Numbered from the stretch's first letter, positions 4,016 through 41,848 are shown. The stretch is DNA of 64,000 bases from a virus (IMGVR_UViG_3300014205_000195:28184-92183); one strand, 5' to 3'. The notes: generated by a model not told the origin, from the letters alone. Numbers and translations: made by a program.

Positions 4016-4774
4016 TTACGTGCTGAGGCCGAAGAGCTGCGTCGTGTACGTCGACTTCACCGGCGCCTGGGACGCGCTGAGCGCGAGCCTGAGCCAGACG
4101 CCGATGGCGTCGCCGGCGGCGAGGTTGCTGCCCGGGACGGACTTGTCGTTGTCGTCGAACGTGTCCGGGTCGAGCGTGTTGGCGGCGGACGGCGCCGTGA
4201 GCCTGTTGGCGGTCGTCGTCGTGTCGTTCACGGCGCTCGCGAGCAGGTGGGTGATGAGCCCGGTCGGGTCCGCCGACTGCTTCGCGATGGCGTTGATGAG
4301 CGAGAGCGTCCCGTGCGTGTTCTTCCAGAAGAACTTCATGTAGTAGTCCTTCGCCGAGGACAGGTCGGAGAACGCGTTGATGAACAGGCGGACGAACCCG
4401 CGCTCGCCCGGCGGTATCTGCGCGATCTGGATGGCGCCCGTCGTGCGCCTGACCGTCACGACGCCTAGCGCGGCGGACGCGAGCTCGGCCTTCAGGACGC
4501 GCTCGACCGTGCCGAGGGACGACAGCGTGATCGGCGTGGTCCCTGTGAGGGCCTTCGTCTCCGACGCGGTGATGCCGCTGGAGCGCCTGGCCGTGACCGT
4601 GATGTCCATCGCGTCCGCGGCGTTCGAGGAGACGACCTCAAGCGTGTCGGTGGACGCGATGTCGGTGAAGATGATCCTCCGCAGGGCGTCTATCGCGCCG
4701 CCGTTGGTGGACGTGTCGTCCTCCGGCATGTTCTGCGAGGCGTAAGCCACCAGGTCGGTTGTGAGGATTGCCAT
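4016..4774 (-). CDS. hypothetical virion structural protein (252 aa)
   Basis: ORF track; Ala/Thr-rich, protein-like; located in structural block. Confidence 0.55.
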   Translation of the reverse strand: MAILTTDLVAYASQNMPEDDTSTNGGAIDALRRIIFTDIASTDTLEVVSSNAADAMDITVTARRSSGITASETKALTGTTPITLSSLGTVERVLKAELASAALGVVTVRRTTGAIQIAQIPPGERGFVRLFINAFSDLSSAKDYYMKFFWKNTHGTLSLINAIAKQSADPTGLITHLLASAVNDTTTTANRLTAPSAANTLDPDTFDDNDKSVPGSNLAAGDAIGVWLRLALSASQAPVKSTYTTQLFGLST

Positions 4775-4842
4775 GCGAGAGGTCGCCCCTTAGATCGCGG
4801 ATACGTCTACGGTACACGGACGGCCTGGGCGCGGAAAACCCG

Positions 4843-5034
4843 TCACCGCCCCGCCAGGTACCTGTCCACGACGGCCATTATCTGATCGTGCGCGGACGAC
4901 GCCTTCCTGAGCATGGACATGTTGGGGTCACCGCTCGAATCGCTCGGTACCATCCTCATCAGGGCCGCGTCTATCTCGCTCACGAGCTCCTGCCGCGTCA
5001 TCACTCGGCCCTGGTCCCATATAGACCTGCTCAT
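4843..5034 (-). CDS. hypothetical small protein (63 aa)
   Basis: ORF track; stop overlaps start region of next gene. Confidence 0.35.
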   Translation of the reverse strand: MSRSIWDQGRVMTRQELVSEIDAALMRMVPSDSSGDPNMSMLRKASSAHDQIMAVVDRYLAGR

Positions 5035-7997
5035 GCCGGCCCCCCGCCCAGCGCGAAGTTGCGCGATTCGCCGGCCGAGACCAGCCTCACGCTGCCCATG
5101 GACACCGGCGTCGTCTCCACTGACGGCACGCCCCTCGCCTCCAGATCCATGCCTGGCTCGTCGTCCTCATACCGCAGCGTCATGTGCGGCGTGTACCCGT
5201 GCGTGTGATCCACCGGCACGCCGGCGGCCGTCAGGGCCCTCACCAGGTCCGCCCTGAACTCCGACAAGCCCGGGACGTCCATCAGCGCGACGATTGGGGC
5301 GCGTCCTGGGGCGTTGAACCGCCCGACGCCGCCCACCGTGCCGCTGAGCGGTCCCGCCGACGCGCATACGGCCTCCACCGCGCGGACGGCGGCCTCCATC
5401 AGCCCGGCGCCAGTCAGGTCCCGCTTAGCGTCGTCCGTGAGATACGCGATCGTGACGTGCAGCTCGTTCGGCGGCTCCCCGCCGTCCACCGCCAGCCTCG
5501 TCGCGAGCTCCCGGTCGGGGAACCACGCGATCATGGCGCCCGGGTCGGCGTCGGCCGATATCTCCCTGTCGTCGTATCTGCCCGGCAGGTTCTCCGGGCC
5601 GCCCTTGTCCTCGTCGTCGGGGCCCTGTATCGTCACGCCCTTGCTCTCGGTCGACCCGAGGAGGACCTCCGCCTGCCTGACGTCCTCGTACGTCCCGTCG
5701 GCGCCGGCGCGCTCGATTATCTCGTGCTCCGGCTCGTCGCCGAACTTGACGCACGCACCCAGCCTCAGACCGTCGACTATGGCCTCGGCGTCCTCGTGCA
5801 GCGCGTCCACCGCCGCGAGGATGATCGGGTCGAGCGCGTCGCGATCGCGGACGGCCCTCTCGAGCTCCGAGCGGACCATCTCCACGACGTCCGCCCCGAA
5901 GCCTGACTTGGACAGCTTCGAGCCGACGTCGATGCCCAGGTCGGCGGCTGCCGACAGGACGTCAGACGTCCACAGCGCAGCGTCTCGCTCGCGGAGCGGG
6001 CGCACGGTGGTCGCCTTCCTCAGCGCCAGACCGAGCTCGTTGAACAGGGCGCCGTCGCCGGCGGCTGACGCCGACCTCTGCAGCCCGGAGATGAGCTTGG
6101 TGGCGTTCACGTACCCGTGCTCGACGGGGAACCCCGTGCCGTCCACCCATATCAGCCAGTCGCCTCGGTCGGCCCTCGCCGGGCCGCCCATCCACGTCAG
6201 CGCCGGCGGAGGCGCACCCTTGTCGAGGGCGGCGAGCACGGCGAACGCCGGCATCCTCAGGCTCGGCTCCGCTATGTGGATGGCCTTGTCGACTACGTCA
6301 GTTATCGCGTTGAACAGGAACGGCGTCTGCGGCGTCGAGAGCTTCGGCGTCCTCACTGGCTCCGACAGGGCGGGCTCCTTCCTGTCGTCGCTGCCATCCA
6401 CTATCTCGTACGCCCTGCCGGCGAAAGCGTCCGCTGGCATGGACTTCTCCATGCGCTTCTCCGGCGTCGCGGGCTCGAGCTCGTCCTCCTCGCCGCCCTC
6501 CATGTCGCGGAGCTTGGTGTAGTACCTCGGGTCCTCCGCCAGGTGGTCGCGCACGATGTTCGCGATCGAGTCCATGTCGCCGCCCACCGTCTCGTAGTGC
6601 TCAGACGACTCGGCCTCAAGGCCCTCGTCGAACTCGTCGACGCCGTTCTCGAGTCGCGGCCCGCTGATGGCCTCCATGACTATGTCGAGCGTGGCGGCGA
6701 GCTCGTCCCTGACGCCGGGGTTGTCGCTCAGGTCGCTCGGGTCCCACCACGCGAGCGACTCCACCATGTCGCCCCCCGGGTCGTCTGGGTTGTCTGCGTG
6801 GTCGCGCGGTCCCGCTATCGGGACGTCTGCCTCAGACTCCACGGTGTACACGAACCCGGCGTAGACGCCGTCGGGGGTCACCCACCTACCGGTCAGCTTG
6901 CCCGGCGGCAGCGGACACCCAGTCTCCTCCGACCACTCCCGCCTGGCGGCCCACGGGAGGGACTCCGAATCGCCGTCCCTGTGGCCGCCCGGGAACTCCC
7001 ACTTGCCCGCGGCCGCGTCGTCCTCGTTGCCGATGAGCGCCCGCTGCAGCATGAGCACGCGGCCGCTGTCGGCGGCCCTCACGGCCAGCCCGGCGACCTG
7101 CGGGCCGTCTGCGACCTCCGCCGGCGCCGACGCGCGCCGACCGGCCGCGTCCCGCGCGTGCCCGCGCGGCCTGTGCGACTCGACGTCGCCACGGCCGCTG
7201 CGCCTATGGTGCGCCGTGGACCCGTGCTTGTCCTTGTGCTTGTCGAGGAACCCGGCCGGACCTGTAGCCGTCTGTCGCCACGTCTGTATGCCGCCTGGCG
7301 TCTTGGCCTGCCGCTTCGCGGCCTGCGACAGCGCCTTCATGGCCTGCCCAGGTGTCACCGGGCACACGCCGTCCAAGCAGAACGCCGACTGCGCGAACTC
7401 GCCTGCGACATCGAACGACTTCGAGATGATGGTGAACTTGGCGTCAGGGTTGACGGGCGTCTCACAGATTGTGATCTCGTACAGCACGACCTCGTCGATC
7501 ACCCAGAAGCAGGTGCCTCCCTGGCACTCGTGCCTCCTGGACTCGAACGGCGCGTCCGCGGAGATGGAGAAGCTGGCCATCTTTCCGGACATGATGTCCT
7601 CGATGACCTTGTCCACCACCGGCGGCCTGTACTTGTCGGTCCTGACCTTGACCACCGCGAACAGGCCTATGTCGTCGACCTTGGTCTCATACACCTGACC
7701 GGTGCGCGGGTCCTTCCAGCTGCGCAGCACCTCGCCAACCTGCACGTTGCTGTGCAGCAGATTGGCGTTGCGGTACTTCGGGTTGGCCATGAACCTCGGG
7801 AGGTCCCTCGCCAGCGCGCGCTTGGTGATGACGTGCTTCTCGCGGTCCACGACCTGCGGCGACGCGTAGCCGGCGACCACCACGTCCGGTATGTCGCCGT
7901 CTCCCTTGTGCAGCACGGTCAGCTGGCCGTAGCCGCTCAGCGGGTACTGCGGGACCGTGCCGGTGACTATCCTATCCCAGGCCCTCGAAGCTATCAT
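5031..7997 (-). CDS. Multidomain fusion: N-terminal HK97-type prohead protease-like domain, central Nudix hydrolase domain, C-terminal 2H phosphoesterase (LigT-like) domain
   Basis: N-terminus resembles the Caudovirus prohead protease family. Nudix box GKWEFPGGHRDGDSESLPWAARREWSEETG is present. The C-terminus has two H-x-T motifs (HVTIAYL and HMTLRY) of the 2H phosphoesterase fold. Confidence 0.75.
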   Translation of the reverse strand: MIASRAWDRIVTGTVPQYPLSGYGQLTVLHKGDGDIPDVVVAGYASPQVVDREKHVITKRALARDLPRFMANPKYRNANLLHSNVQVGEVLRSWKDPRTGQVYETKVDDIGLFAVVKVRTDKYRPPVVDKVIEDIMSGKMASFSISADAPFESRRHECQGGTCFWVIDEVVLYEITICETPVNPDAKFTIISKSFDVAGEFAQSAFCLDGVCPVTPGQAMKALSQAAKRQAKTPGGIQTWRQTATGPAGFLDKHKDKHGSTAHHRRSGRGDVESHRPRGHARDAAGRRASAPAEVADGPQVAGLAVRAADSGRVLMLQRALIGNEDDAAAGKWEFPGGHRDGDSESLPWAARREWSEETGCPLPPGKLTGRWVTPDGVYAGFVYTVESEADVPIAGPRDHADNPDDPGGDMVESLAWWDPSDLSDNPGVRDELAATLDIVMEAISGPRLENGVDEFDEGLEAESSEHYETVGGDMDSIANIVRDHLAEDPRYYTKLRDMEGGEEDELEPATPEKRMEKSMPADAFAGRAYEIVDGSDDRKEPALSEPVRTPKLSTPQTPFLFNAITDVVDKAIHIAEPSLRMPAFAVLAALDKGAPPPALTWMGGPARADRGDWLIWVDGTGFPVEHGYVNATKLISGLQRSASAAGDGALFNELGLALRKATTVRPLRERDAALWTSDVLSAAADLGIDVGSKLSKSGFGADVVEMVRSELERAVRDRDALDPIILAAVDALHEDAEAIVDGLRLGACVKFGDEPEHEIIERAGADGTYEDVRQAEVLLGSTESKGVTIQGPDDEDKGGPENLPGRYDDREISADADPGAMIAWFPDRELATRLAVDGGEPPNELHVTIAYLTDDAKRDLTGAGLMEAAVRAVEAVCASAGPLSGTVGGVGRFNAPGRAPIVALMDVPGLSEFRADLVRALTAAGVPVDHTHGYTPHMTLRYEDDEPGMDLEARGVPSVETTPVSMGSVRLVSAGESRNFALGGGPA

Positions 7998-8570: not shown

Positions 8571-8623
8571 ACAATCGTGCCAGTCGATGGCGGCAGCGGG
8601 AAACCTACGTGGCCTTCCATGTC

Positions 8624-8697: not shown

Positions 8698-8705
8698 GCT
8701 GCTGT

Positions 8706-8779: not shown

Positions 8780-8788
8780 ACGACTCGC

Positions 8789-10910: not shown

Positions 10911-11486
10911 CTACTTCGGCAACCCTGCGATCGCCATCACCGCCTTCATGACCCGGATCTGCTTCACGCAGTCCTCGTCAGCCACATGGCCCACCAGGCC
11001 GTCGCCGGCAGTCTTGTAGGCGAGCGTCGCCGCGTCCGACGCGGCCTGGTTCAGCCTGAACAGCGTCCCCAGGTCCCTGGCGCCCTTGCGTCCCCATGCC
11101 GGCGCTATGCCGACGTGCGTGTACAGGTCGGACAGGAGCCTCTGGTCGTAGTACATGTGGCTCCACATGGCCGTGCACTTGTTCTCGCGGTAGAAAGCGT
11201 TGGCGGCGCGCAGGGCGTCGCCCAGCGGCAGCTTCGGCTCGGCCAGCAGCACGGCCCCCTGGGCCTCCGCCGACTGCTGCGCCCACCACATCACAGTGTC
11301 TACCGATGGCTTGCCGGGCGTGGACTTCGGGTCCACGTTGATGAGCGTCCTGGCGATCGGCTCGAAGTCGACCGTATCGTAGGTCACCATGCCTATCTGG
11401 AGAAGGCACAGGTCGCTCAGGCCCTCGGTGTCCACCATGCACTCAATTGGCATAATATATGCCCGCCACCTTCTCGCAATGCTCAC
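10911..11486 (-). CDS. DnaQ-like DEDDh 3'-5' exonuclease (191 aa)
   Basis: VDTEGL (Exo I) ... H...D motifs; paralogous to 37186..37782 (shared TVMWW motif). Confidence 0.6.
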   Translation of the reverse strand: MSIARRWRAYIMPIECMVDTEGLSDLCLLQIGMVTYDTVDFEPIARTLINVDPKSTPGKPSVDTVMWWAQQSAEAQGAVLLAEPKLPLGDALRAANAFYRENKCTAMWSHMYYDQRLLSDLYTHVGIAPAWGRKGARDLGTLFRLNQAASDAATLAYKTAGDGLVGHVADEDCVKQIRVMKAVMAIAGLPK

Positions 11487-12344: not shown

Positions 12345-13011
12345 TCACCAGTCGCCGGCCATCCAGTCGGACAGCCTCCACCGCCTGCCTGTGCGATGGT
12401 CGAGCGCCTGGTCATCCTTGCACCGGTAGGTGCGTACCTTGTCGCCCCTCTCGCCGCGGCCGATCTGCCCGCGGCGATCGCCGTTCACTGATGCCGCCGC
12501 CTCCGACTTGCCGGCATCCGTCAGCCTCGCTTCCAGCACCGACAGGGCGAGCTGCCTGTTATGGTACTGCGACCGCGTGGACTCTATCCGGACGCGCTCG
12601 CCGGTCGGCCTGTGCACCACCACGACGGCGGACTCCGTCTTGTTCCTATGCTGCCCTCCGGGGCCGTCGCCGCGCGTGACCGAGACGTCCACATCCCGCA
12701 TGTCCAGGCGTGCCTCGGCGCCATCCTGTGGCCGCAGGACGGCCACGGTGACCGTGGACGTGTGCACCTTGCCGTTCTTCTCGTTAGGCGGCACCCTCTG
12801 CCACCTGTGGCCGCCACCCTCGCCCAGGAAGTCCGAGGCGTCGTCGCCGCTCACCTCCAGTGCGATGAACCCTGGCCTCTCCTCTATCGGAGAGAGGTCA
12901 AAGACCCCTCCGGTCGCAGCGGCGGGCGTAGGCCCTCGCCATCTCCGCAACCAGTGCCTTGGCCTCGTCGCCGCCCTCGGCGGCCCGTATCTCGATGAGC
13001 AACGTATCCAT
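12345..13011 (-). CDS. PrfH/RF-H-like peptide chain release factor (GGQ domain, lacks RF domain 1 and the SPF motif); translation appears to need a +1 programmed frameshift at CUU UGA C (codon 38)
   Basis: ATG at 13011 (AGGA 9 nt upstream) opens MDTLLIEIRAAEGGDEAKALVAEMARAYARRCDRRGL, which aligns with the start of RF2 domain 2 and then hits TGA. The +1 frame continues DLSPIEERPGF...GDGPGGQHRNKTESAV...RTYRCKDDQALDHRTG to the stop at 12345. The shift site GGAGGGG-U-CUU-UGA-C matches the prfB autoregulatory frameshift motif. The ORF-track N-terminus (12899..13241) is Arg/Pro-rich and out of frame. Confidence 0.7.
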
Positions 13012-13029
13012 GTGCTAATCCTGTCGTGT

Positions 13030-13103
13030 TGGTCGGACCATCGGGAATCGAACCCGAGCCTGGGACTTATCAGATCCCCGTTTTGCCACTCAACTATGGT
13101 CCA
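13030..13103 (-). tRNA. tRNA-Ile(GAT)
   Basis: anticodon loop CTGATAA; AC stem GGGAT/GTCCC; T-loop TTCGATT; CCA encoded. Confidence 0.75.
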
Positions 13104-13111
13104 ACTGGATA

Positions 13112-13180
13112 TGTCGCCAGGCGGACTCGAACCGCCTCGACGGTCGCCCGTCTTTATCCTTGGCTGGCCAGGCCGACGAC
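13112..13180 (-). ncRNA. tRNA-like RNA module (acceptor stem + T-arm + small GCGA-tetraloop hairpin, no anticodon arm); Y-RNA-like candidate adjacent to rsr
   Basis: Acceptor GTCGTCG/TGGCGAC (two G-U pairs), T-arm GGCGG-TTCGAGT-CCGCC, internal hairpin GACGG-GCGA-CCGTC. Only 69 nt, no 7-nt anticodon loop with U33, and no encoded CCA. It lies in the 175-nt gap between tRNA-Ile and the rsr stop. Confidence 0.4.
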
Positions 13181-13279
13181 ACGTGGCGGAAGGAGGAGCA
13201 CTCGAAGCCCAGCCCGGAGACCGGACCGCTCCGTTTAGCAAACGGGCCCGGCGCGCCTGTCCGGTTCACCTTCCATCGG

Positions 13280-14794
13280 CTACGACCCAGCGAGCGCCGT
13301 CCCAGCGATGGCTTGGACGAGCGCGTCCTGGCCGCCGCCGCTCTCGACGATGCCCATGAGGTCGAAGATCTTCTCGCTGAAGCCGGCCAGCGCCACGACA
13401 CGCTTCTCCGGGAACATCAGCGTCCCGTAACCGGCGAGGTCGATGCTGTACAGCATCGGGTCGGCGCCGGTCGCCTTCTTGTACGCCTTGAACGCGCCCT
13501 TGGTGGGACGGCTGTCGCCGTACGAGTCCTCCGCCCAACCCTGCATGTCCGACAGGATGATGATCCTGTCGTACGCGGTCCCCGTCTTCGTGATGAGATT
13601 GAACGCCGCGTGGAAGTTGGTCCCGCCGTAGTTGAACCGCAGCGACTCAGCCGCCGCAAGCACCGAGGACCCGGTGCCGAGGCTGTGGTACGACGCGTCT
13701 GTGCCGAACAGCACGAGGTCAGCACCGGTGGCGCGGACCAGGGCGGCCGCGAACAGCGCGCCCTTTTGGGCGGCACTGGCTGCGTCCCTCCCCTTCGTCC
13801 ACGTCATCGACGACGAGACGTCGAGGATGACGAGCGTCTTTCCGGGGAGGTCCGGGATGTTCCCGAGCGCGATGTCCGCCGCCCGCTCCACCGCGCCGAT
13901 CGCCTTGGCGGTCCCAGGGACCGACTTCAGCGTGTCACGTGCGACGGCAAACCTGAACGGGAGCACGAGACTGCCACGGATCCGCCGCTCGTCCGTCAGC
14001 TGCTCGCAGGCGATGTCGACAGCGTCCGGGGCGTCCTTCACGATGTTCCGCAGGTTGCGGAGGAGCGCGAAGTAACCGAGCTTGTTGTCACGGAGCAGCT
14101 GCTCCCAGGCGGCGCCCTTCGTGGCGCCGGTGCCCTCGTCGGACTGCCCAGCCTGCGTGAGGGCGACCTCCCACGTCTCCGCCGGCTTCAGCGTGCCGCC
14201 CATGAGGGCGGACAGGGCCGGCGTCGGCCGCGGGTGCGTCAGGTTGACCAGGTCGAGCATGTTGATGTCGCGCCCGGTGCCGAGGTACTTGGCCAGCTGG
14301 TACTCGTCGAGGCCCTCGATGGCCCGCGCGAACCCCTTCCGCATGGCGGCCGGCTCGTTCTTGCCGATGTTAGCGCGGTAGTAGCCGAGGATCTCGAACA
14401 TGTCGTCCGGGCGCCGGACGATGCGTTCGAAGAACGTCTTCGTCCACTGGGCACCCTTGACGCGCGCGGCGAGCTCCGCCGCCACGACGTGTGAGATAGA
14501 ACGCATGCCGAACTCTCGGCGAGCGTACAGGGCCGCCTTGGCGGCGAACTCCGGGTCGACCATATCGAGGACCCGCTTGAGCTGCTCGCGGCCGGCCGCC
14601 TCCGAGCGGTAGAACTTGTCATCCATGAAAGACGTAAGGAGCATCGAGACCAGCTCGAGATTGTCGGATTCCTTGTAGGCCCGCCCTCCGGCGAGGTTGG
14701 CGACCTTCGGCTTGGCGATCTTTACCGCCGGTGCCGGTGCCTTCTCCTGGAGCTTGTTGTACTTCGCCATCTCTGTCTCTCCTAAGCGCTGCAT
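13280..14794 (-). CDS. rsr: Ro60/Rsr orthologue (TROVE domain + C-terminal vWA domain)
   Basis: 504 aa; TROVE-like N-terminal region; vWA MIDAS motif LVILDVSSSM; architecture identical to bacterial Rsr. Confidence 0.8.
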   Translation of the reverse strand: MQRLGETEMAKYNKLQEKAPAPAVKIAKPKVANLAGGRAYKESDNLELVSMLLTSFMDDKFYRSEAAGREQLKRVLDMVDPEFAAKAALYARREFGMRSISHVVAAELAARVKGAQWTKTFFERIVRRPDDMFEILGYYRANIGKNEPAAMRKGFARAIEGLDEYQLAKYLGTGRDINMLDLVNLTHPRPTPALSALMGGTLKPAETWEVALTQAGQSDEGTGATKGAAWEQLLRDNKLGYFALLRNLRNIVKDAPDAVDIACEQLTDERRIRGSLVLPFRFAVARDTLKSVPGTAKAIGAVERAADIALGNIPDLPGKTLVILDVSSSMTWTKGRDAASAAQKGALFAAALVRATGADLVLFGTDASYHSLGTGSSVLAAAESLRFNYGGTNFHAAFNLITKTGTAYDRIIILSDMQGWAEDSYGDSRPTKGAFKAYKKATGADPMLYSIDLAGYGTLMFPEKRVVALAGFSEKIFDLMGIVESGGGQDALVQAIAGTALAGS

Positions 14795-16571: not shown

Positions 16572-16805
16572 CGTCACTGTCTCTCTGGGGAAGTCTTCCC
16601 TCCCCATGATGAGAACGAAGCACCGGCAGCACACGTAGGCCGTCAGCCCGTGCGCCGGCCGGCGCCGGTCGTCAAACATCCGCTCCTCGCCCACCTTGTG
16701 GGTCGCAGGCGCTCGACACATGGAACATCGCTCGCCGGCACACGCGGCGGACACCCAATGCTCGACACTCACGACATCCTCGGGATCATGCTGATCAGCT
16801 GCCAC
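16563..16805 (-). CDS. hypothetical Cys-rich small protein (80 aa)
   Basis: ORF track; CxxC pairs. Confidence 0.35.
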   Translation of the reverse strand: MAADQHDPEDVVSVEHWVSAACAGERCSMCRAPATHKVGEERMFDDRRRPAHGLTAYVCCRCFVLIMGREDFPRETVTLG

Positions 16806-17458
16806 CGGTGCTCGCGCCAGTTGAACGCCTGCGTCATGGCGCCGTCTGGCTCGACGAGCCCGCCCATCCTGTCACGCGGCGTCGCCACCTCGTCCAGCAT
16901 GACGTCGTTCAGCTCCAGCCGCTCCACTAGCTCATGCACCTTCATGCCCTGGCACGCAGAGTGCCCGAACCGGCTCTGCGCGATGGCGTTGATGCTGTTC
17001 CTAACGGCATCTTTCTGTCGCCAGAGGAAGTAGTTCTCCACCTCTGTAGGGTCCGGTATTGTCCAGACCCGCGAATCGAACGTCGCGAGCCGTCTCCACT
17101 CAGGCATGGCCGCGTTGAAGCACGCGGTCGCTATCGACGCCGACACGCTAGCGAGCTTCTGGACGTTGTTGTCGAACATGGCCTCCGTCTCTACCGTCTC
17201 GAAGTCGGTCATCAGAAGGCTCACCTCGTCGCTCTGCACGTACGCAAACCTCGCGTTCTGCATCGTGGTGACGAGCCCTGAGGCGACCGCGTCCATCGCG
17301 TTCGTTATCATCCGGTCGAACGGCTTCTCGAACGGGCGACACAGCGTGTGGAACGCGCGTCCGTCCACCCTGATGAGCGTGTACGTGCGGCGCGGCAGCA
17401 TGTACCGGGTCCTGTCCTCGTACTGCCTCTTCATCCGATCGCCTAGCTCGTCGCGCAT
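16769..17458 (-). CDS. Thg1-like protein (tRNA-His guanylyltransferase family, 3'-5' nucleotidyltransferase used in tRNA 5'-end repair)
   Basis: YTLIRVDGRAFHTLCRPFEKPFD...AYVQSDEVSL matches the Thg1/TLP signature (RIDGRxFHKF...KPND...SDE); start trimmed to the internal Met because the ORF-track N-terminus overlaps tRNA-Arg. Confidence 0.7.
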   Translation of the reverse strand: MRDELGDRMKRQYEDRTRYMLPRRTYTLIRVDGRAFHTLCRPFEKPFDRMITNAMDAVASGLVTTMQNARFAYVQSDEVSLLMTDFETVETEAMFDNNVQKLASVSASIATACFNAAMPEWRRLATFDSRVWTIPDPTEVENYFLWRQKDAVRNSINAIAQSRFGHSACQGMKVHELVERLELNDVMLDEVATPRDRMGGLVEPDGAMTQAFNWREHRWQLISMIPRMS

Positions 17459-17481
17459 CACACCAGCCTCGCTGTGGTCTT

Positions 17482-17556
17482 TGGTACCCTCGGCAGGACT
17501 CGAACCCACATCCTGACGTTCGAAGCGTCGCATCCTATCCGTTGGACGACGAGGGC
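17482..17556 (-). tRNA. tRNA-Arg(TCG)
   Basis: anticodon loop CTTCGAA; T-loop TTCGAGT; CCA encoded; G1:U72 wobble. Confidence 0.7.
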
Positions 17557-24995: not shown

Positions 24996-25436
24996 TCAGG
25001 GGATTTTTTCGACGTACCCCGCGAACGTCCTGTTGAACAGGCAGTCCGGGCTCCGGCGCGCCCTGATGTACTCTACCAGCTCCGGCCCGCGCATCGGCGT
25101 CAGCCGAGCGAGGACCAGGGCGGTCACCAGGGATGAGCGGTTCAGCCCCGCTGCGCAGTGTACCAGGACGCGCGTCCCCGCCCTCACGGCAGCCGCCGTC
25201 CGGTCAGCCACGGCCGCGAGGGCCGCCTCGTCCGGGAGGACGTGGTCGTCGTCGAACTCCCACCTGACCTCAGTGAACGGCTGCAGGTCGCTGGGCACGT
25301 GCCTAATGGGGTCGTCGCCGCAGAGGTTCACGACGTAGCGTATCCCTCTGCGCCACACCTCCATCTCGTCGAACGGCGTGTCGAGCGAGCCGGACTGCCA
25401 CAGCTTGCCGGGGATGATCTCCGACAACATCACCAC
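24996..25436 (-). CDS. dual-specificity / tyrosine protein phosphatase
   Basis: Active-site signature VHCAAGLNRSS (HCxxGxxRS). Confidence 0.8.
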   Translation of the reverse strand: MVMLSEIIPGKLWQSGSLDTPFDEMEVWRRGIRYVVNLCGDDPIRHVPSDLQPFTEVRWEFDDDHVLPDEAALAAVADRTAAAVRAGTRVLVHCAAGLNRSSLVTALVLARLTPMRGPELVEYIRARRSPDCLFNRTFAGYVEKIP

Positions 25437-26647
25437 GCCGACTGCGAGTGGTCGATGCCGTCCTGCCTGCGGTCAGCCAGGAGGTCGACGTCGTCGTCGG
25501 GCACGCCTGCCCCTCCGAGGGGACGCGGCGTCGGGCCGCCGTCGTCGAACGGGAGCGGGCCGCCCAGGTCCGGCGCCTGCTTCCTGTCGCGATGGTAGTG
25601 GTGGCCGGTGCCGCCGCGGGCGTCGCGGTGCTTCTCCTCTGGTGCGCCCCAGCCGTCCTCGGCCGGCGCCCTCTGGTCGCGGAGCTTGCTGCGGAGCCGC
25701 ACGGGGTCGCCCTCGTACTTGACGGGATACTCCTGCCGCTCGCTCTTGGGCCTGAGACTCTGCCGCCTCGGGAACTGCTTCACGGCGGACCCGGCGTCCT
25801 CCTGGTGGTGATGCGCGGTCGAGCCGAACGAGTCTCTGTGCTTCTCCTCCATCGACTTCGCGATGGCCGACGAGGCGGCTATGACGTCGTCGACGTCACC
25901 CTCGCCGTAGGCGAGCGCGAGGCGGCTCGCCGTATCGATGGCCTTCGCCAGGAGCGGCCTGTGGTCGGAGAGGGCGCTCTTCGGCTTCACCGCGGCGCCG
26001 GCATCCTCCGGGTCGAGGAGCTCGTCCGGGGCCTCTATGCCGGGGTCGAGCGCGTCCTTCGGCTTCTCGACGACGGCCGTGTCCCCGTCCCGCGACACGA
26101 CGAAGTCCGCCTGCGACAGCGCTCTGATGATCCGTCTCGACAGCTTCTTGACGCCCGCCTCGTCGACCGCCTCGGCGTCGACGTGGTACGAGCTCCCGTC
26201 GTCGGTGACCACGTACCCGTCCGGCTGCGTCGGCGACGCCGGCGGTATGTCGGCCGCGGCGAGCGCCTCGCGGATCCTCGCCAGCGTGCTCTCACGCACG
26301 TCGTCTACGGCAGCGGTCTGGGCGGTGTCCGGCATCTCGTCCTGCGCCAGCCCTGGGTCGCCGGCCGACGGGTCGTCAGCCTGTCCGTCCCCAAGCCCGC
26401 GCGCCGCGACGTCGTCAGACACGGGCGGCCTGGTGCGGCCGTCCGCCACGTAGAAGCGCCCGCCACGCGGGCCCTCCTGAACGAATATGCCGGCCGGCGG
26501 CTTCTCGTTCTGCCTGAGGTATATGCGCTTGGCCGGCAGCTCCATCCGCCTGTCGGAGTCGGACTCCTTGACGGCGAACGGGTCGGCCGTCCTCATGGTC
26601 GTCCGTCTGCGCGCCGCCCTGCTCTGGTGCTTGCTATCCGGCATCAT
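25430..26647 (-). CDS. hypothetical acidic protein (405 aa) with RGGxFY and KHRD...G(S/T)(A/G)HH repeat motifs
   Basis: ORF track; motifs GPRGGRFYVADGR, EEKHRDSFGSTAHHHQ and EEKHRDARGGTGHHYH. Confidence 0.55.
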   Translation of the reverse strand: MMPDSKHQSRAARRRTTMRTADPFAVKESDSDRRMELPAKRIYLRQNEKPPAGIFVQEGPRGGRFYVADGRTRPPVSDDVAARGLGDGQADDPSAGDPGLAQDEMPDTAQTAAVDDVRESTLARIREALAAADIPPASPTQPDGYVVTDDGSSYHVDAEAVDEAGVKKLSRRIIRALSQADFVVSRDGDTAVVEKPKDALDPGIEAPDELLDPEDAGAAVKPKSALSDHRPLLAKAIDTASRLALAYGEGDVDDVIAASSAIAKSMEEKHRDSFGSTAHHHQEDAGSAVKQFPRRQSLRPKSERQEYPVKYEGDPVRLRSKLRDQRAPAEDGWGAPEEKHRDARGGTGHHYHRDRKQAPDLGGPLPFDDGGPTPRPLGGAGVPDDDVDLLADRRQDGIDHSQSAW

Positions 26648-26885: not shown

Positions 26886-27869
26886 TCACCGGAGGCCGCC
26901 GTGCAGCGACGCGAGGACGTCCAGCCTCGCGTCTATTATTGACGCCTTCTCTGACTCGCTCAGCTTCACCTTCCCGACGCCATCGGAGCCGTGCGTGTTC
27001 ACCACGCGGGCGAGCACCGGCGCGAGCTGGTGGCGCTTCGCGAGCACCTCGCCGCAGGCGGCCAACACGTTCCGACGGATGACGTCGTTCCCACGGTAGT
27101 CGTCCGCCTCGACGCTCTCCGGGCTGCCTATCCCGAGCTGCTGCTCGAGCCCCGGCCAGGAGTTTCCCTTCAGGAGCTCCCACACGGACTCCTCGTCCGT
27201 CGGGTCGTCCCACCGTCCGGCGTTGTCTATCGCCCACAGCCTGTCGTTCTCTGGGTCCACGATGAAGTTCGCGCCGTGCCTGTCCCAGTTGCCCAGCATC
27301 AGATCCATGACGACCATGCGGCTGTAGTCCCTGACCATCGCCTCGCTGATCTCGCCGTCGTACATCTGGGCCAGTCTCGCCTTGCCGCCGAACCCGGCGT
27401 CGTCCACCCACCGCAGCGCCATGCCGTCGAACCGTTTCTCCTCCGTCAGCTGGTAGACGCCGGGATGGAGCCCCCACCCCATGATCTCGTCCAGCTGTTG
27501 CCACTGCAGCTCGCCAGCCCTGTCCACCTTGCTGGCCTTGATGAGCATCCTGCTGTCGGATAGGCCGGGGACAGGATCGAACGTCCCAGGCTTAGCGTAC
27601 GCGGTGGCGCACTTCCCGCGGTTCAGCGTGCCCTGCTGATCGGCGCACGTCCACGTGTCGTCAACCTTGACGATGTGACCGAAACCCATCCGACCGCCGC
27701 GAGCCAACGAACGGCCGGAGGCGGCTGGCTGCTGCTCTGCCGGCCTGCCTGCCGAGTCGGCGTCGTAGTAGAGCCCACCGCGCTCGCCCTGACGGACGGT
27801 CGCGCCAGGCGGCGCCGAGCCGGGCCTCCCGGTGACGTAGACTCGTCCCTTCTCGTAGATCTGGGTCAC
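26886..27869 (-). CDS. PI3/PI4-kinase-like atypical protein kinase (327 aa) with N-terminal RGGLYYDAD motif
   Basis: Catalytic-loop-like LGNWDRHGANFIV and metal-binding-like LWAIDNAG (DRHxxN / IDxG). Confidence 0.6.
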   Translation of the reverse strand: MTQIYEKGRVYVTGRPGSAPPGATVRQGERGGLYYDADSAGRPAEQQPAASGRSLARGGRMGFGHIVKVDDTWTCADQQGTLNRGKCATAYAKPGTFDPVPGLSDSRMLIKASKVDRAGELQWQQLDEIMGWGLHPGVYQLTEEKRFDGMALRWVDDAGFGGKARLAQMYDGEISEAMVRDYSRMVVMDLMLGNWDRHGANFIVDPENDRLWAIDNAGRWDDPTDEESVWELLKGNSWPGLEQQLGIGSPESVEADDYRGNDVIRRNVLAACGEVLAKRHQLAPVLARVVNTHGSDGVGKVKLSESEKASIIDARLDVLASLHGGLR

Positions 27870-33260: not shown

Positions 33261-34511
33261 CTACAAGTAGCGCGGATCGTGCTTCGGGCCGTACTTGGGG
33301 CGCCCGAGCACGTCGCGTTCCGGACCCCGCTCGTCATCGAGCTCCTGCTCCCTGTCCTTCACCCGCTGATCGCCCGCCGCTATCATGAGGTTCCAGGCCT
33401 TGTTGCCCTCCGGCGAGAGACCGCCACCCGGGACGTCCTCCCGGTCGCCGTGACCGAACATCGCCTGGAAGGCGGGGTAGAACATGTCCACCATGTCGTC
33501 CTCTGAGAAGTCGTCGGCCCCGCCGTGCTCGCTCTCCCACACGCCGTTCGCCCACACGTCAGCCATCTCGTTTATAGCGGGATGCTTCTTGGCCCAGCGG
33601 TTCGCGGTCCAGCCGTTCATGCTGTTTTTTCCGTCGTCCGGCTCCGGCGCCTCGAGGTCGCCGTCCCACCCCTGCCGCTGCCTGCCCTGCGTGCCGTACC
33701 CGGTCTCCGATGGGCCGTCGTCGTAGAAGAGGCCGCCACGCGGGCCCTGCCTCAGCTCCGCGCCCTCCGGGGCGTCGCCGCGGCCGTGCACGTACACCTT
33801 GTCCTTCTCGAGGCCGCCCTTGCCGACCCCCTCGCCGAACGTGGGATCGGTCATCGAGCCGTCGGTGCCGTAGTCGTACGGGTCGTCGTCCGGGTAGTTC
33901 GGCTCGCCGTGGCCCTTCGATATGTCCCCGGTGGCCATGATGGCGGCGTCCACCGCCTTGGACAGCGTCCCCGCCGGCCGTCGTGACGGACGGTGCTTCT
34001 GCCCGATGGCGAACCCGTCGCCGTCGCGGTCCCACTCGCCCATGCTCCCGAGGACGCGCCTGGCCTCGCCCTCTCTGGCAGCGTTTATCTCGGACAGGCG
34101 GCCACGTATGTCCCTGACCCTGCCGAGCTCAGCCGGCGTGCACTCGCCGCGTCGCGCCTTGTCGTAGAGGTCCTTGTACTCGTCGACGAGCTTGTCCTCC
34201 TCGCCGTGAAGCGGGTCTGCGCTGCCCTTACGGTGGCGCATGGCCACCGGGTGCTCGTCCGGGTGCCCGAAGTGCCGGTGCGTCAACGCGTGGCCGGCCT
34301 CCACCACCTCGATCGGGTCCTGCGTGTACGTGGCCTCGATGTCCGGCCTCGGCGCCGGGCCCTGGCCGCCCATGGCGCCGGCCATGTGCTTCACGACGAC
34401 GGAGTCGCCCACGCGTATGTACCTCTTGGTCACGTCACAGCTCCTGCGGGTCAACGGGCACGAGCCCCAAGCGTCCAGGCGCCGGCGGGTCTGCCCTGAG
34501 CGCCCACTCAA
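33261..34511 (-). CDS. hypothetical protein (416 aa) with RGGLFYDD motif (paralogous motif family)
   Basis: ORF track; GPRGGLFYDDGPSETGYG; Asp/Gly-rich. Confidence 0.55.
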   Translation of the reverse strand: MSGRSGQTRRRLDAWGSCPLTRRSCDVTKRYIRVGDSVVVKHMAGAMGGQGPAPRPDIEATYTQDPIEVVEAGHALTHRHFGHPDEHPVAMRHRKGSADPLHGEEDKLVDEYKDLYDKARRGECTPAELGRVRDIRGRLSEINAAREGEARRVLGSMGEWDRDGDGFAIGQKHRPSRRPAGTLSKAVDAAIMATGDISKGHGEPNYPDDDPYDYGTDGSMTDPTFGEGVGKGGLEKDKVYVHGRGDAPEGAELRQGPRGGLFYDDGPSETGYGTQGRQRQGWDGDLEAPEPDDGKNSMNGWTANRWAKKHPAINEMADVWANGVWESEHGGADDFSEDDMVDMFYPAFQAMFGHGDREDVPGGGLSPEGNKAWNLMIAAGDQRVKDREQELDDERGPERDVLGRPKYGPKHDPRYL

Positions 34512-36973: not shown

Positions 36974-37255
36974 TCAGGCGCCTATACGGTCAGCCTGCAG
37001 CGGGCCCAGCTTGACCAGCGTCATCTCAAACACGTCGCCCGGCAGCGGGCTCTCGTCCGCCCGGCAGACGAAGACCACTGTCGAGTCGCCCCTGGCAGTC
37101 ACCTGCACGAGCTGCTCAGACTGGGCCACGGTGCCCTGCGTCGGGACCACCAGCGCGACGTTGCTGACCTGGACCTTCGTCTTGATCATATCTCCACCGT
37201 CTCCAGCGACGCCGGATCCACCGGAACGGCCATCGCCCTCATCGCGGCGTGGCAC
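36974..37255 (-). CDS. hypothetical protein (93 aa)
   Basis: ORF track. Confidence 0.35.
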   Translation of the reverse strand: MPRRDEGDGRSGGSGVAGDGGDMIKTKVQVSNVALVVPTQGTVAQSEQLVQVTARGDSTVVFVCRADESPLPGDVFEMTLVKLGPLQADRIGA

Positions 37256-37782
37256 TTCTGCAGGTGCTCCGCCTGTGTTATGGCATCGAACAGCGCGGTG
37301 TGTCCATCCGCACGGTCGTCCGCCCGCGGCAGTTTCATGCCGACGCGCCTGAACACCGTCCTGGTGTCATTCACGTCCCAGAACTTCCACGGCGCCTTGA
37401 GCCCGAGCCGCTCGTAGCACTCCGAGATCAACGGCACGTCGAACGTGGCACCGTGCGACCACACGCAGCTGCCGTACCGAGTCACGCTCGAGTACCACTC
37501 GGTGAATGCGGTCAGCACGTCCGTCACCGGCACCGGCGGCGGGTCCATCAAGCTCTGCCTGGCCACATCCGGTCTGGACAGCCACCACATCACCGTGTCG
37601 CCGCTCACCCTGAGCCCTAGGTCTATGCAGCTCTGCAGGTCAACGTTCCTATGGAACACCTTCTTGCCGTCCTTCGGTACCGATGACCCGTCAGGGTCGA
37701 ACGCCACGGCACCTATGGACACGAACGCCGCGTCCCCCCGGGTCGACATGGTCTCCAAGTCGACCATCACATCCACAACCAT
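37186..37782 (-). CDS. DnaQ-like DEDDh 3'-5' exonuclease (198 aa)
   Basis: VDLETMS (Exo I), HGATFD (Exo II), H...D (Exo III); paralogue of 10911..11486. Confidence 0.65.
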   Translation of the reverse strand: MVVDVMVDLETMSTRGDAAFVSIGAVAFDPDGSSVPKDGKKVFHRNVDLQSCIDLGLRVSGDTVMWWLSRPDVARQSLMDPPPVPVTDVLTAFTEWYSSVTRYGSCVWSHGATFDVPLISECYERLGLKAPWKFWDVNDTRTVFRRVGMKLPRADDRADGHTALFDAITQAEHLQKCHAAMRAMAVPVDPASLETVEI

Positions 37783-38277: not shown

Positions 38278-38868
38278 TTATGCGTGCCGTCCCAACAGCC
38301 TCATGTACCGGGTCAGCGCGACTATGGACTTGGCGTCTGCCACGCGGCCACCGTCTATGGCCGCCCACACCTCGTCCAGCCCGAGCCAGTGCATCGAGAC
38401 GCCCTCGCCGTGATCCTGCGGCAACGGGTCGCGCGTCAGCCCGGCGCAGTGGAAGATGGTTATCCGTTCGTTGCTGTACCCGGGCGACATGAGCAACGGC
38501 CGCCCCAGCCTGGTCAGCATGGACGGTCTCAGCCCGCACTCTTCGCGCAGCTCGCGCGCCGCCGCTTCGAAGTCCGTCTCACCGTCGTCCACGCGGCCGG
38601 CCGGCACCTCGTATGTCAGGTTCTCCACCGCGTGCCTGTACTGCGACACCAGCGCCACGCGGCCGTCGTCTGTCGCCACCATGGCGACCGTCCGTGGACG
38701 CTCGACCACCGAGCGCACCTGCTCGACGCCATCCACGATCACCACGTCGTCCCTCACCGGGACGAACCCGGTGAGAAGGTACTTGCTGCTCACGGGAGTG
38801 ACTGCGATGCGCCTGCTCCAGTTCATGGTCACAGCGCCGCCGCGAGGCGGACCTCGCCGAAGCTCCAC
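38278..38868 (-). CDS. Nudix hydrolase, ADP-ribose pyrophosphatase-like
   Basis: Nudix box GRVDDGETDFEAAARELREECG; 196 aa. Confidence 0.75.
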   Translation of the reverse strand: MELRRGPPRGGAVTMNWSRRIAVTPVSSKYLLTGFVPVRDDVVIVDGVEQVRSVVERPRTVAMVATDDGRVALVSQYRHAVENLTYEVPAGRVDDGETDFEAAARELREECGLRPSMLTRLGRPLLMSPGYSNERITIFHCAGLTRDPLPQDHGEGVSMHWLGLDEVWAAIDGGRVADAKSIVALTRYMRLLGRHA

Positions 38869-41338: not shown

Positions 41339-41848
41339 CTAGGCCTCGACCGACCTCAGGCTCACCAGCAGGTCAACGACCGCCCGGTCGGCGATCTGTT
41401 CCATGATGTCGAGGCGATCGCCGTGGAAGAGGTACTCGTTGCACCTGACCTCGCGGAACGAATGGGCGATCGCGATGAAGCTCAGCCCCGCAGGCTTGGT
41501 CGACCTGGCGCCCGGGCGCTTGTACGAGAGGCTGCTCTCCGCGAGGCACACGTCGACCTTCGACCGGTCCCTCGCCCACATGGCCATCAGGCGCGTGGTG
41601 TCTGCGCTCACGGCGCCCATCTGGACGATGGCCTCCTCGCTGATGCCGGTGTGCTCGACCTTCGAGCGGTTGGAGTAGGCGACAACGCCGCCGTCGAACC
41701 AGGCTGACGCGCCGTTCACCGACACCAGCCGGCTGCTGATGAGGCCGCCGGCCGCCGTCTCAACGACGCAGATCTTCAGACCCCTGTCGGTCAGGATCCG
41801 ACCGATCTCCTGCAGACTCGTGTTGATGCTGACGGTATGAGCGTTCAA
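41339..41848 (-). CDS. CinA C-terminal-domain / PncC-like NMN amidohydrolase
   Basis: 169 aa; VVETAAGGLISSRL matches the ESCTGG signature of CinA/PncC. Confidence 0.65.
   Translation of the reverse strand: MNAHTVSINTSLQEIGRILTDRGLKICVVETAAGGLISSRLVSVNGASAWFDGGVVAYSNRSKVEHTGISEEAIVQMGAVSADTTRLMAMWARDRSKVDVCLAESSLSYKRPGARSTKPAGLSFIAIAHSFREVRCNEYLFHGDRLDIMEQIADRAVVDLLVSLRSVEA

Follow-up and report, generated by a model that had tools for sequence, protein, structure and literature searches.

Polyvalent proteins, which join several enzymatic domains and a virion-associated domain in one polypeptide, include assemblin-like peptidases in the treatment of head-associated fusions by Iyer et al. (2017; PMC5512222). 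In section 20 of that paper and in sections 3.4.5 and 3.5.2 of PMC9503650, Nudix domains fused to MuF, portal or a capsid-processing serine peptidase, and 2H phosphoesterase domains fused to MuF or portal, have been predicted to be packaged and injected against nucleotide signals. These predictions (PMC9503650 being Iyer et al. 2022) agree with the reading given here and are all computational. In its discussion of such fusions, PMC9503650 uses the example of the T4 internal proteins. The T4 proteins IPI-III and Alt are loaded into the prohead and injected with the DNA; each is made as a polypeptide of its own, from which gp21 removes an N-terminal capsid-targeting peptide.

Related fusions are also known from cultured viruses. 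Among cultured viruses, the closest protease domain to the one described here is that of HVTV-1 gp119 (Druskaviridae), a 637-residue protein without Pfam-detectable passenger enzymes, encoded directly upstream of the major head protein in a genome of similar size (about 100 kb). Portal–Nudix fusions, with or without MuF, are found in actinobacterial phages and prophages (e.g., gp3 of Arthrobacter phages Mufasa8 and Sonali, and Streptomyces/Kitasatospora proteins annotated "phage portal protein"). Together with gp13 of the Pseudanabaena phage Pam4, a MuF–Nudix protein, they share the Nudix clade of the present protein with 46-60% identity over ~140 residues, but their carrier is portal or MuF and most of them have no 2H domain, P0082 being the exception. 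The 2H clade is shared by Edmundo gp18 and gene 18 of the Laroye group (Arthrobacter) and by ValentiniPuff gp7 (Microbacterium), with 33-36% identity to residues 806-983. These proteins, annotated as "capsid maturation protease" or "RNA ligase", also fuse 2H to a prohead protease. On the other hand, they are only 370-390 residues long, have the 2H domain at the N-terminus and an XkdF-like S78_2 protease at the C-terminus, and lack Nudix, DUF5661, and the helical middle domain.

The protein described here is encoded in a 64,000-nucleotide stretch of DNA from a large uncultured phage (the window) and carries a protease, Nudix, DUF5661, a helical domain, and 2H in one chain of 988 residues, a combination absent from the sections of PMC5512222 and PMC9503650 that treat such proteins. 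The protease, Nudix, and 2H domains lie in a single ORF, as expected of a polyvalent protein, and the contig also carries terminase, portal, and head-fibre genes. The first-pass annotation took capsid maturation proteases to be stand-alone or fused to scaffold or capsid, a premise that the polyvalent assemblin-like peptidases of Iyer et al. (2017) make out of date. The protein is a new and well-formed example of a predicted polyvalent, head-packaged effector class; since computational work had already described fusions of this type, the 988-residue chain adds no new principle and leaves current concepts unchanged. We put at roughly 0.55 the probability that it is the maturation protease of the phage and that its Nudix and 2H enzymes are loaded into the head, released there, and delivered with the DNA against nucleotides of host defence. 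It may be likened to the T4 internal proteins, except that its presumed cargo is covalently part of the protease.

Domain architecture of the 988-residue protein

The gene and its parts are as follows.

5031..7997, minus strand: whole gene, encoding a protease–Nudix–DUF5661–helical domain–2H polyvalent protein (ORF list, two contigs, AF2)
7293..7997, minus strand: predicted prohead (capsid maturation) serine protease, assemblin/S78-like, aa 1-235 (Pfam, PHROGs, tblastn, fold)
7110..7292, minus strand: disordered Arg/His-rich linker holding the KHKDKHGSTAHH motif, aa 236-296 (pLDDT, composition)
6657..7109, minus strand: Nudix hydrolase domain, aa 297-447, with the Nudix box at aa 338-361, nt 6915-6986 (Pfam, AF2, Foldseek)
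6498..6638, minus strand: DUF5661 three-helix module, aa 454-500 (Pfam PF18905)
5748..6332, minus strand: family-conserved, mostly helical middle domain, aa 556-750 (AF2, conservation)
5034..5546, minus strand: 2H phosphoesterase, LigT/CPDase-like, aa 818-988 (Pfam, PHROGs, fold)

The ORF starts with ATG and has a GC3 of 0.91. The identical protein (P0001) is encoded on a 107,438-bp contig in ENA and on a Logan contig of 29,926 bp, from data sets that were assembled independently; therefore, the ORF, which had been called in the first-pass annotation, is real and not an assembly frameshift. A near-identity DNA search of window positions 1-20000 against INPHARED gave no match, and there is thus no cultured close relative. 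Scanning for promoters and terminators around the gene gave nothing above shuffle expectation. In the full-length AF2 model (mean pLDDT 74.6), the protein is modular, with five blocks of pLDDT >85 and, between them, three disordered linkers of pLDDT <50. The protease, Nudix, and 2H domains that had been read from the sequence are borne out by Pfam and AF2/Foldseek, the protease and 2H also by PHROGs, and the domain HMM scans proposed at that stage matched S78, NUDIX, DUF5661, and 2_5_RNA_ligase2.

The N-terminal domain matches prohead protease profiles. Peptidase_S78 (PF04586) is matched above its cut-off at residues 104-196 (E 5.1e-5, 23.9 bits, cut-off 21), over profile positions 73-160 only, which is the C-terminal half of the profile. 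The head maturation protease family phrog_23555 matches residues 23-194 (2.8e-7), and the HVTV-1 head maturation protease is 28% identical over residues 14-238 (tblastn, E 8e-9). In the AF2 model, the core at residues 60-180 has a pLDDT of ~90. Among PDB structures, only T4 gp21 protease (5jbl; E 1.1e-4, prob 1.00) significantly matches the model of residues 1-245, with moderate likeness (TM-score 0.52, normalised by target length). In 32 homologues of the protease domain, H55, H82, S144, S146, D148, C158, C163, C178, and C212 are invariant, and some homologues have inteins inserted in the domain, immediately behind H82 and at C178. Inteins usually occupy conserved sites of important proteins. 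We lean towards the view that the gene encodes the prohead maturation protease of the phage, in polyvalent form and with passenger enzymes.

The Nudix domain is supported by a Pfam match (NUDIX, PF00293) at residues 304-424 (E 9.8e-12, 45.5 bits, cut-off 21.1), and its model has a pLDDT of ~90. By Foldseek, it matches BdRppH, Mt-ADPRase, NudF, and MutT (E ~1e-5, prob 1.00), and is thus about equally near to an RNA pyrophosphohydrolase (BdRppH, 6e-6), ADP-ribose pyrophosphatase, and MutT. The Nudix box, GHRDGDSESLPWAARREWSEETGC, holds an intact REx2EExG catalytic helix (RREWSEETGC) and the upstream Glu. Compared with the consensus used (G-x5-E-x7-R-E-U-x-E-E-x-G-U), its spacing is G-x6-E, with one extra residue, whereas the closest homologues are canonical. 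A separate NudF-like gene lies elsewhere in the phage, beside NAMPT and CinA, and therefore the fused domain is not its only Nudix gene. Phage_Mu_F (PF04233) was not found in the protein by Pfam, although relatives of the Nudix domain are often fused to MuF. The DUF5661 module that follows (PF18905, residues 455-500, E 5.5e-10) is modelled as helices at 455-467, 475-488, and 492-499, and occurs in one or two copies in homologues.

The C-terminal domain belongs to the 2H phosphoesterase superfamily, and its modelled fold is nearest to bacterial LigT/CPDase. It matches 2_5_RNA_ligase2 (PF13563) at residues 845-949 (E 1.3e-11, 45.3 bits, cut-off 27) and two "RNA ligase" PHROGs (phrog_14859, 3.6e-20; phrog_2659, 3.3e-17), and both 2H motifs are present (H847-V-T849 and H938-M-T940). 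Of all PDB folds matched by the protein, the best is the D. radiodurans CPDase (5h7e, 6e-7), which matches this domain; E. coli LigT (5ldm, 4qak) and TT0787 (1iuh) come next. Viral 2H enzymes such as Acb1 and the 2',5'-phosphodiesterases rotavirus VP3 and coronavirus ns2 destroy immune nucleotide signals, and they share with the present domain the 2H fold and the two H-x-T/S motifs. However, the Acb1 profile (PF23474) scored below its cut-off (14.7 bits, cut-off 27, E 0.025), the Corona_NS2A profile gave an E of 0.13, and no Acb1 or VP3 structure is among the best 50 PDB matches, which are LigT/CPDase-type. Acb1 also differs in being a small, stand-alone protein that is not known to be packaged, whereas the 2H domain here sits in a large fusion.

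The middle domain is modelled with a pLDDT of ~90 as helices at 560-749 with a small sheet at 600-631, and Foldseek matched none of the best 50 PDB matches to it. Its "LD..LYED" and "PE..II.E" blocks are kept across the family, even in members that have no Nudix or 2H, and it may be a capsid-binding or scaffold-like part. Most family members also have a C-terminal tail ("...RY.LA.VKDDGGE..ILE" or "...VTLTKE.SG..VVRL") that is missing here. The HK97 protease has a C-terminal targeting region, and by analogy the tail may direct encapsidation. The tail has not been split off by a frameshift, as the 63-residue ORF downstream is a gene of its own, conserved with 56% identity in L001, and shows no tail motif.

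Head-internal carriers and genome context

Among the 120 best homologues, the majority are portal or portal+MuF fusions with the same Nudix clade, and Nudix is carried by 17 of 58 representatives of the protease clade itself. Of the 58, S78 is matched in 26 and S78_2 in six; other representatives have DNA methylases, ATLF metalloprotease, topoisomerase I, or MuF as cargo. P0082 combines portal, 2H, and Nudix, P0030 combines Nudix and 2H, and the genes of Edmundo gp18 and ValentiniPuff gp7 lie right after portal and MuF genes. The same enzymes are thus recurrently fused to three different head-internal carriers: portal, MuF, and protease. The Nudix clade found mostly on portal and portal+MuF, its presence in the protease clade, and the portal pair of P0082 point to a location inside the head. 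Relatives of the protein have protease and 2H only, protease and Nudix only, or neither enzyme; the enzymes come and go, and therefore act as exchangeable cargo on a constant protease/helical chassis. A word-indexed search with the protease domain alone added only seven proteins, and a full HMMER scan of the representatives was needed.

The gene had been placed in a structural block, which holds for its downstream side only. Downstream lie the 63-residue ORF, a 252-residue ORF (4016..4774) without PHROG or Pfam family or phage match, a Gp80-like head-fibre protein, and a 1464-residue SLT_3 lysozyme protein. Upstream lie an island of 39 tRNAs and nucleotide-metabolism genes, and the portal (46687..48708) and terminase are 39-44 kb upstream of the gene on the same strand. 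The gene is not located between portal and major capsid genes, and no major capsid protein has been recognised next to it. With tblastn, the HVTV-1 major head protein matched neither the window nor L001 or L002, and a capsid-gene search in the downstream ORFs of L002 and L001 was uninformative. The window leaves out about 43 kb of the 107-kb contig.

The protease and portal match only archaeal viruses, and the portal is closest to the HVTV-1 group. A haloarchaeal-virus origin is unlikely given the median pI of 5.6 (65 ORFs), the SLT lysozyme, and the bacterial RF-1/PCRF domains; the host of HVTV-1 is archaeal, whereas the window looks bacterial. RtcB was considered for 13280..14794 (PHROG label "RNA-binding protein") and rejected, as the Pfam match is TROVE/Ro60.

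Possible delivery and action of the enzymes

Since the comparative evidence points inside the head, the reading with the best support is that of a nucleotide-degrading enzyme packaged in the capsid and injected. The assemblin/S78-type protease, probably with the helical middle domain, would co-assemble inside the procapsid and cut itself, at the three disordered linkers, as well as other head proteins. Linker cleavage would free the Nudix hydrolase and the LigT-type 2H phosphoesterase inside the head, and in the next infection both would exit together with the DNA and be active ahead of any phage gene expression. Their most likely targets would be NDP-X or cyclic-phosphate nucleotides of host defence. 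Candidate substrates are ADP-ribose derivatives (e.g., ADP-ribose 1''-2'' cyclic phosphate), 5'-triphosphorylated 2'-5' or 3'-5' oligoadenylates, and cyclic oligonucleotides; the ADP-ribose derivatives and the oligoadenylates would each offer a pyrophosphate to Nudix and a cyclic or 2'-5' phosphate to 2H. Against this reading stand the missing C-terminal tail, the lack of an adjacent capsid gene, the portal and terminase ~40 kb away, a 2H fold nearest to RNA-end CPDases rather than Acb1, and the non-canonical G-x6-E spacing of the Nudix box. Ejection of folded enzymes of 15-20 kDa would also call for unfolding or passage through a narrow channel.

The 2H domain is LigT/CPDase-like and below the Acb1 cut-off, and the Nudix fold is equally RppH-, ADPRase-, and MutT-like; therefore, RNA-end processing is a live alternative, if an unlikely one. 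The passengers, delivered or not, would then have RNA ends as substrates instead of small signalling molecules, with 2H working as a 2',3'-cyclic phosphodiesterase or Usb1-like RNase and Nudix as an RppH/NudC-like 5'-pyrophosphohydrolase or de-capping enzyme, with tRNA repair support or decay of host mRNA at the start of infection as the outcome. This is consistent with the best fold matches (CPDase and LigT for 2H, BdRppH among others for Nudix) and with an RNA-heavy genome, which holds, besides the 39 tRNAs, Ro60/TROVE, Thg1, an RF-1 domain protein, an Rnl1-like ligase, RlaP, and PNK. However, substrate is not fixed by fold similarity, and the phage already has a kinase/phosphatase (PNK) and a ligase. 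In T4, the kinase/phosphatase and ligase pair Pnkp/Rnl1 suffices for healing 2',3'-cyclic phosphate ends. The discussion of MuF- and portal-fused 2H domains in Iyer et al. (2017; PMC5512222) bears on both sides, as it gives a Usb1-like RNase as one of two options and also states that 2H domains of the polyvalent type are never found associated with RNA ligases.

Fusion for co-expression only, with the enzymes acting in the cytoplasm late in infection, full-length or self-cleaved and outside virions, and joined to the protease for timing or stoichiometry, is improbable. The position of the gene at the border between the tRNA/nucleotide-metabolism region and the structural genes would suit it, as would the absence of the usual tail, but timing alone hardly explains the repeated fusion of the same Nudix and 2H clades to portal, MuF, and protease, all of them parts or contents of the head, and enzymes that act only late would do little against defences triggered early. 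Most improbable of all is a degenerate, inactive protease fold that serves as a capsid-targeting handle while another protein is the real maturation protease. The weak, half-profile S78 match, the modest TM-score to gp21, and the ~43 kb outside the window could be read in this way. They are opposed by the invariant His and Ser residues, by the inteins inserted at these conserved sites, by the lack of any other protease among the ORFs scanned, and by the homologue in the related HVTV-1, which is annotated as head maturation protease and is encoded immediately before the major head protein.

If the enzymes are delivered with the DNA as proposed, the phage would be armed before transcription against nucleotide-based immunity (Thoeris/TIR, CBASS, type III CRISPR, and oligoadenylate systems) or against RNA-damaging defences, a timing advantage that for these enzymes has so far been predicted from genomes. 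The protein is a clean test object, with five well-folded modules, intact catalytic motifs, defined linkers, natural variants lacking one or the other enzyme, and cultured cousins in the Arthrobacter and Microbacterium 2H–protease fusions and the Pam4 MuF–Nudix protein. Its protease chassis could also offer a natural template for packing foreign enzymes into capsids.

Disordered motifs shared with other proteins

The linkers had been described as Arg/His-rich, which is true of the first (residues 236-296, pLDDT ~29, nine Arg and six His in 61 residues), whereas the other two are acidic by composition. The first linker holds the KHKDKHGSTAHH motif (residues 253-264, nt 7206-7241), and a repeat shared with a second ORF of the window had also been noted.

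25430..26647, minus strand: 405-residue orphan ORF with the KHxD-GSTxHH motif twice and a GPRGGxFY module (motif scan)

A scan with the pattern KH.[DE].{1,4}G[SGT]T.HH confirms this repeat, with one copy in the present protein and two in the orphan ORF (nt 25808-25843 and 25598-25633). These are the three copies in the window, where chance alone would give ~1e-5 matches over the six translated frames, and 11 homologues carry the motif at variable positions. The back-translated KHxD..GSTAHH pattern gave no match over IMG/VR. The orphan ORF has no Pfam or PHROG family and no phage relative, and in a set of 5.8 billion proteins it matched its own cluster only. When the two sequences are read side by side by eye, part of the protease homologue P0006 looks like the ~70 residues that surround the first motif of the orphan ORF.

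A second short disordered motif is a module of ~30 residues, "K.RVYL..PEG..V..GPRGG.YY". Motif carriers include the present protein, the orphan ORF, a kinase-like ORF (26886..27869), ORF 33261..34511, and HVTV-1 gp115/gp116. It is a rather doubtful proposal that KHxD-x3-GSTxHH and the GPRGG module form a cargo-loading or processing code, read by the protease/head-assembly system, that marks otherwise unrelated proteins for encapsidation, in the manner of the T4 capsid-targeting sequence and the encapsulin cargo peptides. Such a code, if true, would let the set of injected effectors be predicted from sequence across a lineage of bacterial and archaeal viruses. Further motif carriers are three adjacent giant ORFs in L010, one of which has an ADP-ribosyltransferase-like match.

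Domain architecture of the fusion protein

The fusion protein is encoded by a single open reading frame (ORF 5031..7997, minus strand, ATG start, 988 amino acids), as the ORF list and the translation confirm, and one phase keeps a high third-position GC over the entire length. An identical protein (P0001) is present in two independent assemblies, on contigs of 107,438 bp (ENA) and 29,926 bp (Logan), so the long ORF is not a frameshift artefact. The first-pass annotation had called protease-like, Nudix and 2H domains, and these calls agree with a Pfam scan in which four families pass their respective cut-offs. PHROGs matches are to head maturation protease families and to "RNA ligase" (2H) families. 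The AF2 model of the full-length protein (44-sequence alignment, mean pLDDT 74.6) has five confidently modelled blocks and three linkers that are disordered. The Arg/His-rich character that had been ascribed to the linkers holds for the first of them, while the other two are acidic.

Pfam families and AF2 model segments of the fusion protein
aa 104-196, Peptidase_S78 (Pfam, E 5.1e-5, 23.9 bits, cut-off 21)
aa 304-424, NUDIX (Pfam, E 9.8e-12)
aa 455-500, DUF5661 (Pfam, E 5.5e-10)
aa 845-949, 2_5_RNA_ligase2 (Pfam, E 1.3e-11)
aa 1-235, protease domain (model)
aa 236-296, linker 1, Arg/His-rich, pLDDT about 29, contains the KHKDKHGSTAHH motif (model)
aa 297-447, Nudix domain (model)
aa 454-500, DUF5661 helices (model)
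aa 503-554, linker 2, acidic (model)
aa 556-750, conserved helical domain, no relative found (model)
aa 753-817, linker 3, acidic (model)
aa 818-985, 2H domain (model)

The assignment of the N-terminal domain to the prohead proteases is upheld by both profile and fold, since the S78 score exceeds its cut-off and the only PDB structure that the domain, modelled on its own, matches significantly is the T4 prohead protease gp21 (5jbl, E 1.1e-4, probability 1.00). His55, His82, Ser144, Ser146, Asp148 and four cysteines are conserved without exception across 32 homologues. The cysteines Cys158, Cys163, Cys178, Cys207 and Cys212 (window 7509-7526 and nearby), four of them invariant and one nearly so, are located within the protease domain and just beyond it, and may coordinate a structural zinc ion or pair as disulfides. 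We know of no other prohead protease with such an arrangement.

The catalytic helix of the Nudix domain, RREWSEETGC, is intact, and its Nudix box has a G-x6-E spacing, one residue longer than the consensus and the closest homologues. The PDB matches of this domain are divided roughly equally among BdRppH, ADP-ribose pyrophosphatases and MutT. In the 2H domain, both H-x-T motifs (His847 and His938) are intact, and the best PDB match of the entire protein falls here, to the D. radiodurans CPDase (5h7e, 6e-7), followed by E. coli LigT, 4qak and TT0787. By contrast, the Acb1 profile stays below its cut-off (14.7 versus 27 bits), and the closest folds are those of CPDase/LigT. The C-terminus (window 5031-5040) ends ~45 residues short of the closest homologues (clusters P0002-P0004 and P0010-P0017), and the conserved C-terminal tail of most family members is missing.

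Exchangeable cargo on a constant protease/helical chassis

Among the matches listed from the 5.8-billion-protein set, seven clusters (P0001-P0006 and P0011), some with inteins, have the full architecture. The protease and helical chassis also occurs with 2H only (P0012-P0016), with Nudix only (P0009 and P0010), and with neither (P0017-P0020). Most of the remaining ~100 best-listed matches align by the Nudix domain alone and are portal or portal+MuF fusions of Streptomyces-like phages and prophages. When the protease domain was searched exhaustively with HMMER, 631 representative clusters were recovered at E <= 1e-3, in which the domain is N-terminal, central or C-terminal. The partner domains were counted by a Pfam scan of 58 protease-clade representatives.

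Partner domains in the 58 protease-clade representatives
Nudix, 17/58
N6_N4 DNA methylase, 5/58
anthrax-lethal-factor-like metalloprotease, 2/58
D12-class DNA methylase, 1/58
topoisomerase I, 1/58
MuF, 1/58
2H, 1/58

The portal protein P0082 has the Nudix+2H pair too, as does P0030. Among cultured phages, 2H is joined to an XkdF-type protease, encoded directly after portal and MuF, in Edmundo/Laroye gp18 of Arthrobacter phages and in gp7 of the Microbacterium phage ValentiniPuff; gp13 of the Pseudanabaena phage Pam4 is a MuF+Nudix fusion, and the Arthrobacter phage Sonali has a portal–Nudix fusion. The lineage of the fusion protein itself is absent from the cultured-phage collections searched. 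The cargo is thus exchangeable on a constant chassis, and the same cargo swaps between carriers. The recurrence of the same enzymes on three head-interior components is the strongest argument that the intracapsid location is what selection acts on.

Fusions of this kind were assumed to be novel in the first-pass annotation, and that novelty is lower than assumed. Iyer et al. (2017, PMC5512222) defined polyvalent proteins and described MuF or portal fusions of 2H, for which they suggested an RNase role or the degradation of defence nucleotides. The proposed packaged effector is not a new idea; it is a reasonable one and agrees with such published predictions. In the 2017 survey the peptidase is always C-terminal (PMC5512222), whereas here it is N-terminal; the protein further differs from those described in carrying two enzymes, DUF5661 and a conserved helical domain on one protease. 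The literature search found no experimental study of such fusions.

Proposed packaging and role of the enzymes

The established domain identities, folds, catalytic motifs and disordered linkers are compatible with a packaged enzyme directed against signal nucleotides, a reading to which we give a probability of about 0.55. The protein would be incorporated into the procapsid, where the protease would cleave within the linkers. Both passenger enzymes, Nudix and 2H, would stay in the head, go into the cell alongside the DNA, and remove nucleotides that bear a pyrophosphate, a cyclic or 2'-5' phosphate, or both. Among the possible substrates, ADP-ribose 1''-2'' cyclic phosphate and 5'-triphosphorylated oligoadenylates stand out, since either would present both enzymes with a target. 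Iyer et al. (2022, PMC9503650) reason along the same lines for cRec+Nudix fusions.

The main rival, which we consider possible though distinctly less probable, is that the passengers act on RNA ends as a CPDase and an RppH-like enzyme. It fits the fold matches of both domains as well as the heavy investment of the phage in tRNA and RNA repair. Fusion to the protease for co-expression only is improbable; the recurrence of these enzymes on other head-interior carriers speaks against this account. Least likely is that the N-terminal domain is an inactive protease handle. Several homologues (P0005, P0007, P0022, P0023, P0028 and P0129; loci L008 and L009) have inteins, some with homing-endonuclease parts, inserted immediately behind the invariant His82 and at position Cys178; 7 of the 58 protease-clade representatives contain inteins. 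Inteins typically occupy conserved sites in important proteins, and their placement at these two conserved positions points to a working enzyme. To our knowledge, inteins have not been reported before in prohead proteases.

Genome setting and shared motifs

The window covers 64 kb of a phage with 66% GC, and nearly all of its genes are on the minus strand.

Genes of the window, in the direction of transcription
upstream end, DnaB, primase, UvsX-like recombinase and Cas4-like nuclease
49568..51088, large terminase
46687..48708, minus, portal
between the NAD-related cluster (38278-41848) and the tRNA island (8624-24913), ribonucleotide reductase and exonucleases
after the fusion gene, a conserved 63-aa ORF, then a 252-aa ORF without assigned function
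downstream of the fusion gene, homologue of the podophage GP4 head fibre protein gp80 (PF23140, 3.4e-25)
downstream of the fusion gene and past the window end, SLT_3 lysozyme/Ig-repeat protein, 1464 aa

The fusion gene had been placed in a structural block. It does begin the virion-protein block, as the head fibre and SLT_3 genes downstream indicate, while portal and terminase are far off. Family and homology searches found no major capsid protein in the window or in the related loci L001 and L002.

For the protease domain (7293-7997) and the portal, the only cultured-virus relatives are archaeal tailed viruses of the HVTV-1/HCTV group; the portal also matches a Methanomassiliicoccales virus in the cultured-phage collection. 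A search of 185,579 species genomes gave one match, on a contig assigned to a Methanoregula bin (L011). The homologous protease of HVTV-1 has 637 aa and immediately precedes the major head protein gene. On the other hand, the window resembles a bacterial virus in its non-acidic proteome (median pI 5.6), SLT lysozyme and bacterial-type RF-1/PCRF domains. Together, these features suggest a head module common to bacterial and archaeal viruses.

The KH-D--GSTAHH repeat noted at first pass proved real, with one copy in the fusion protein and two in ORF 25430..26647 (~1e-5 chance matches expected). As KHxD-x3-GSTxHH, it lies in a disordered part of the fusion protein and occurs at varying positions in 11 protease-family proteins. 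Read side by side, ORF 25430..26647 resembles homologue P0006 over ~70 residues around the motif. A second module of ~30 residues, K.R[VI]Y[LV]…P[EP]G..V..G[PE]RGG.[FY]Y (variant K.RVYL…PEG..V..GPRGG.YY), is present in three otherwise unrelated window ORFs.

Copies of the second module in the window
26450-26551, minus, in ORF 25430..26647
27723-27851, minus, in the PI3/PI4-kinase-like ORF 26886..27869
33639-33854, minus, in ORF 33261..34511

The module recurs in several protease-family members, at the N-terminus of HVTV-1 gp115 and in gp116 (L003), and in three adjacent giant ORFs of locus L010 (4228-5409, 5358-10553 and 10553-15517), one with a DRAT (ADP-ribosyltransferase) match. Since both motifs are short, mobile, disordered and common to otherwise unrelated proteins of the head-associated set, they might, speculatively, be a targeting or processing/cleavage signal of such proteins.

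PI3/PI4-kinase-like catalytic-loop matches (PF00454) occur in ORFs 46077-46694 (4.4e-10), directly downstream of the portal gene, and 26886-27869 (5.8e-6). An RNA repair trio at 41974-44737 comprises an Rnl1-like ligase (43580..44737), an RlaP nucleotidyltransferase (42876..43682) and a polynucleotide kinase/phosphatase (PNK, 41974..42879). The NAD-related cluster holds NAMPT (38829..40259), a NudF-like Nudix (38278..38868) and CinA/PncC (41339..41848), with an SPFH/Band-7 protein between its genes, and resembles published phage NAD+ reconstitution pathways. The stand-alone NudF-like gene gives the phage a second, separate Nudix. In the tRNA island, 39 minus-strand tRNA genes are interspersed with Thg1 (16769..17533), Ro60/TROVE (13280..14794) and an RF-1/PCRF protein (12345..13241). 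Two Rv2179c-like exoribonucleases (10911..11486 and 37186..37782) add to what amounts to an unusually complete kit for translation and RNA quality control. The island also encloses a 5-hmdU DNA kinase (18295-19185; PF18723, 8e-54), which, with a ThyX-like enzyme at 54528-55379, indicates that the phage DNA probably carries hypermodified thymine.
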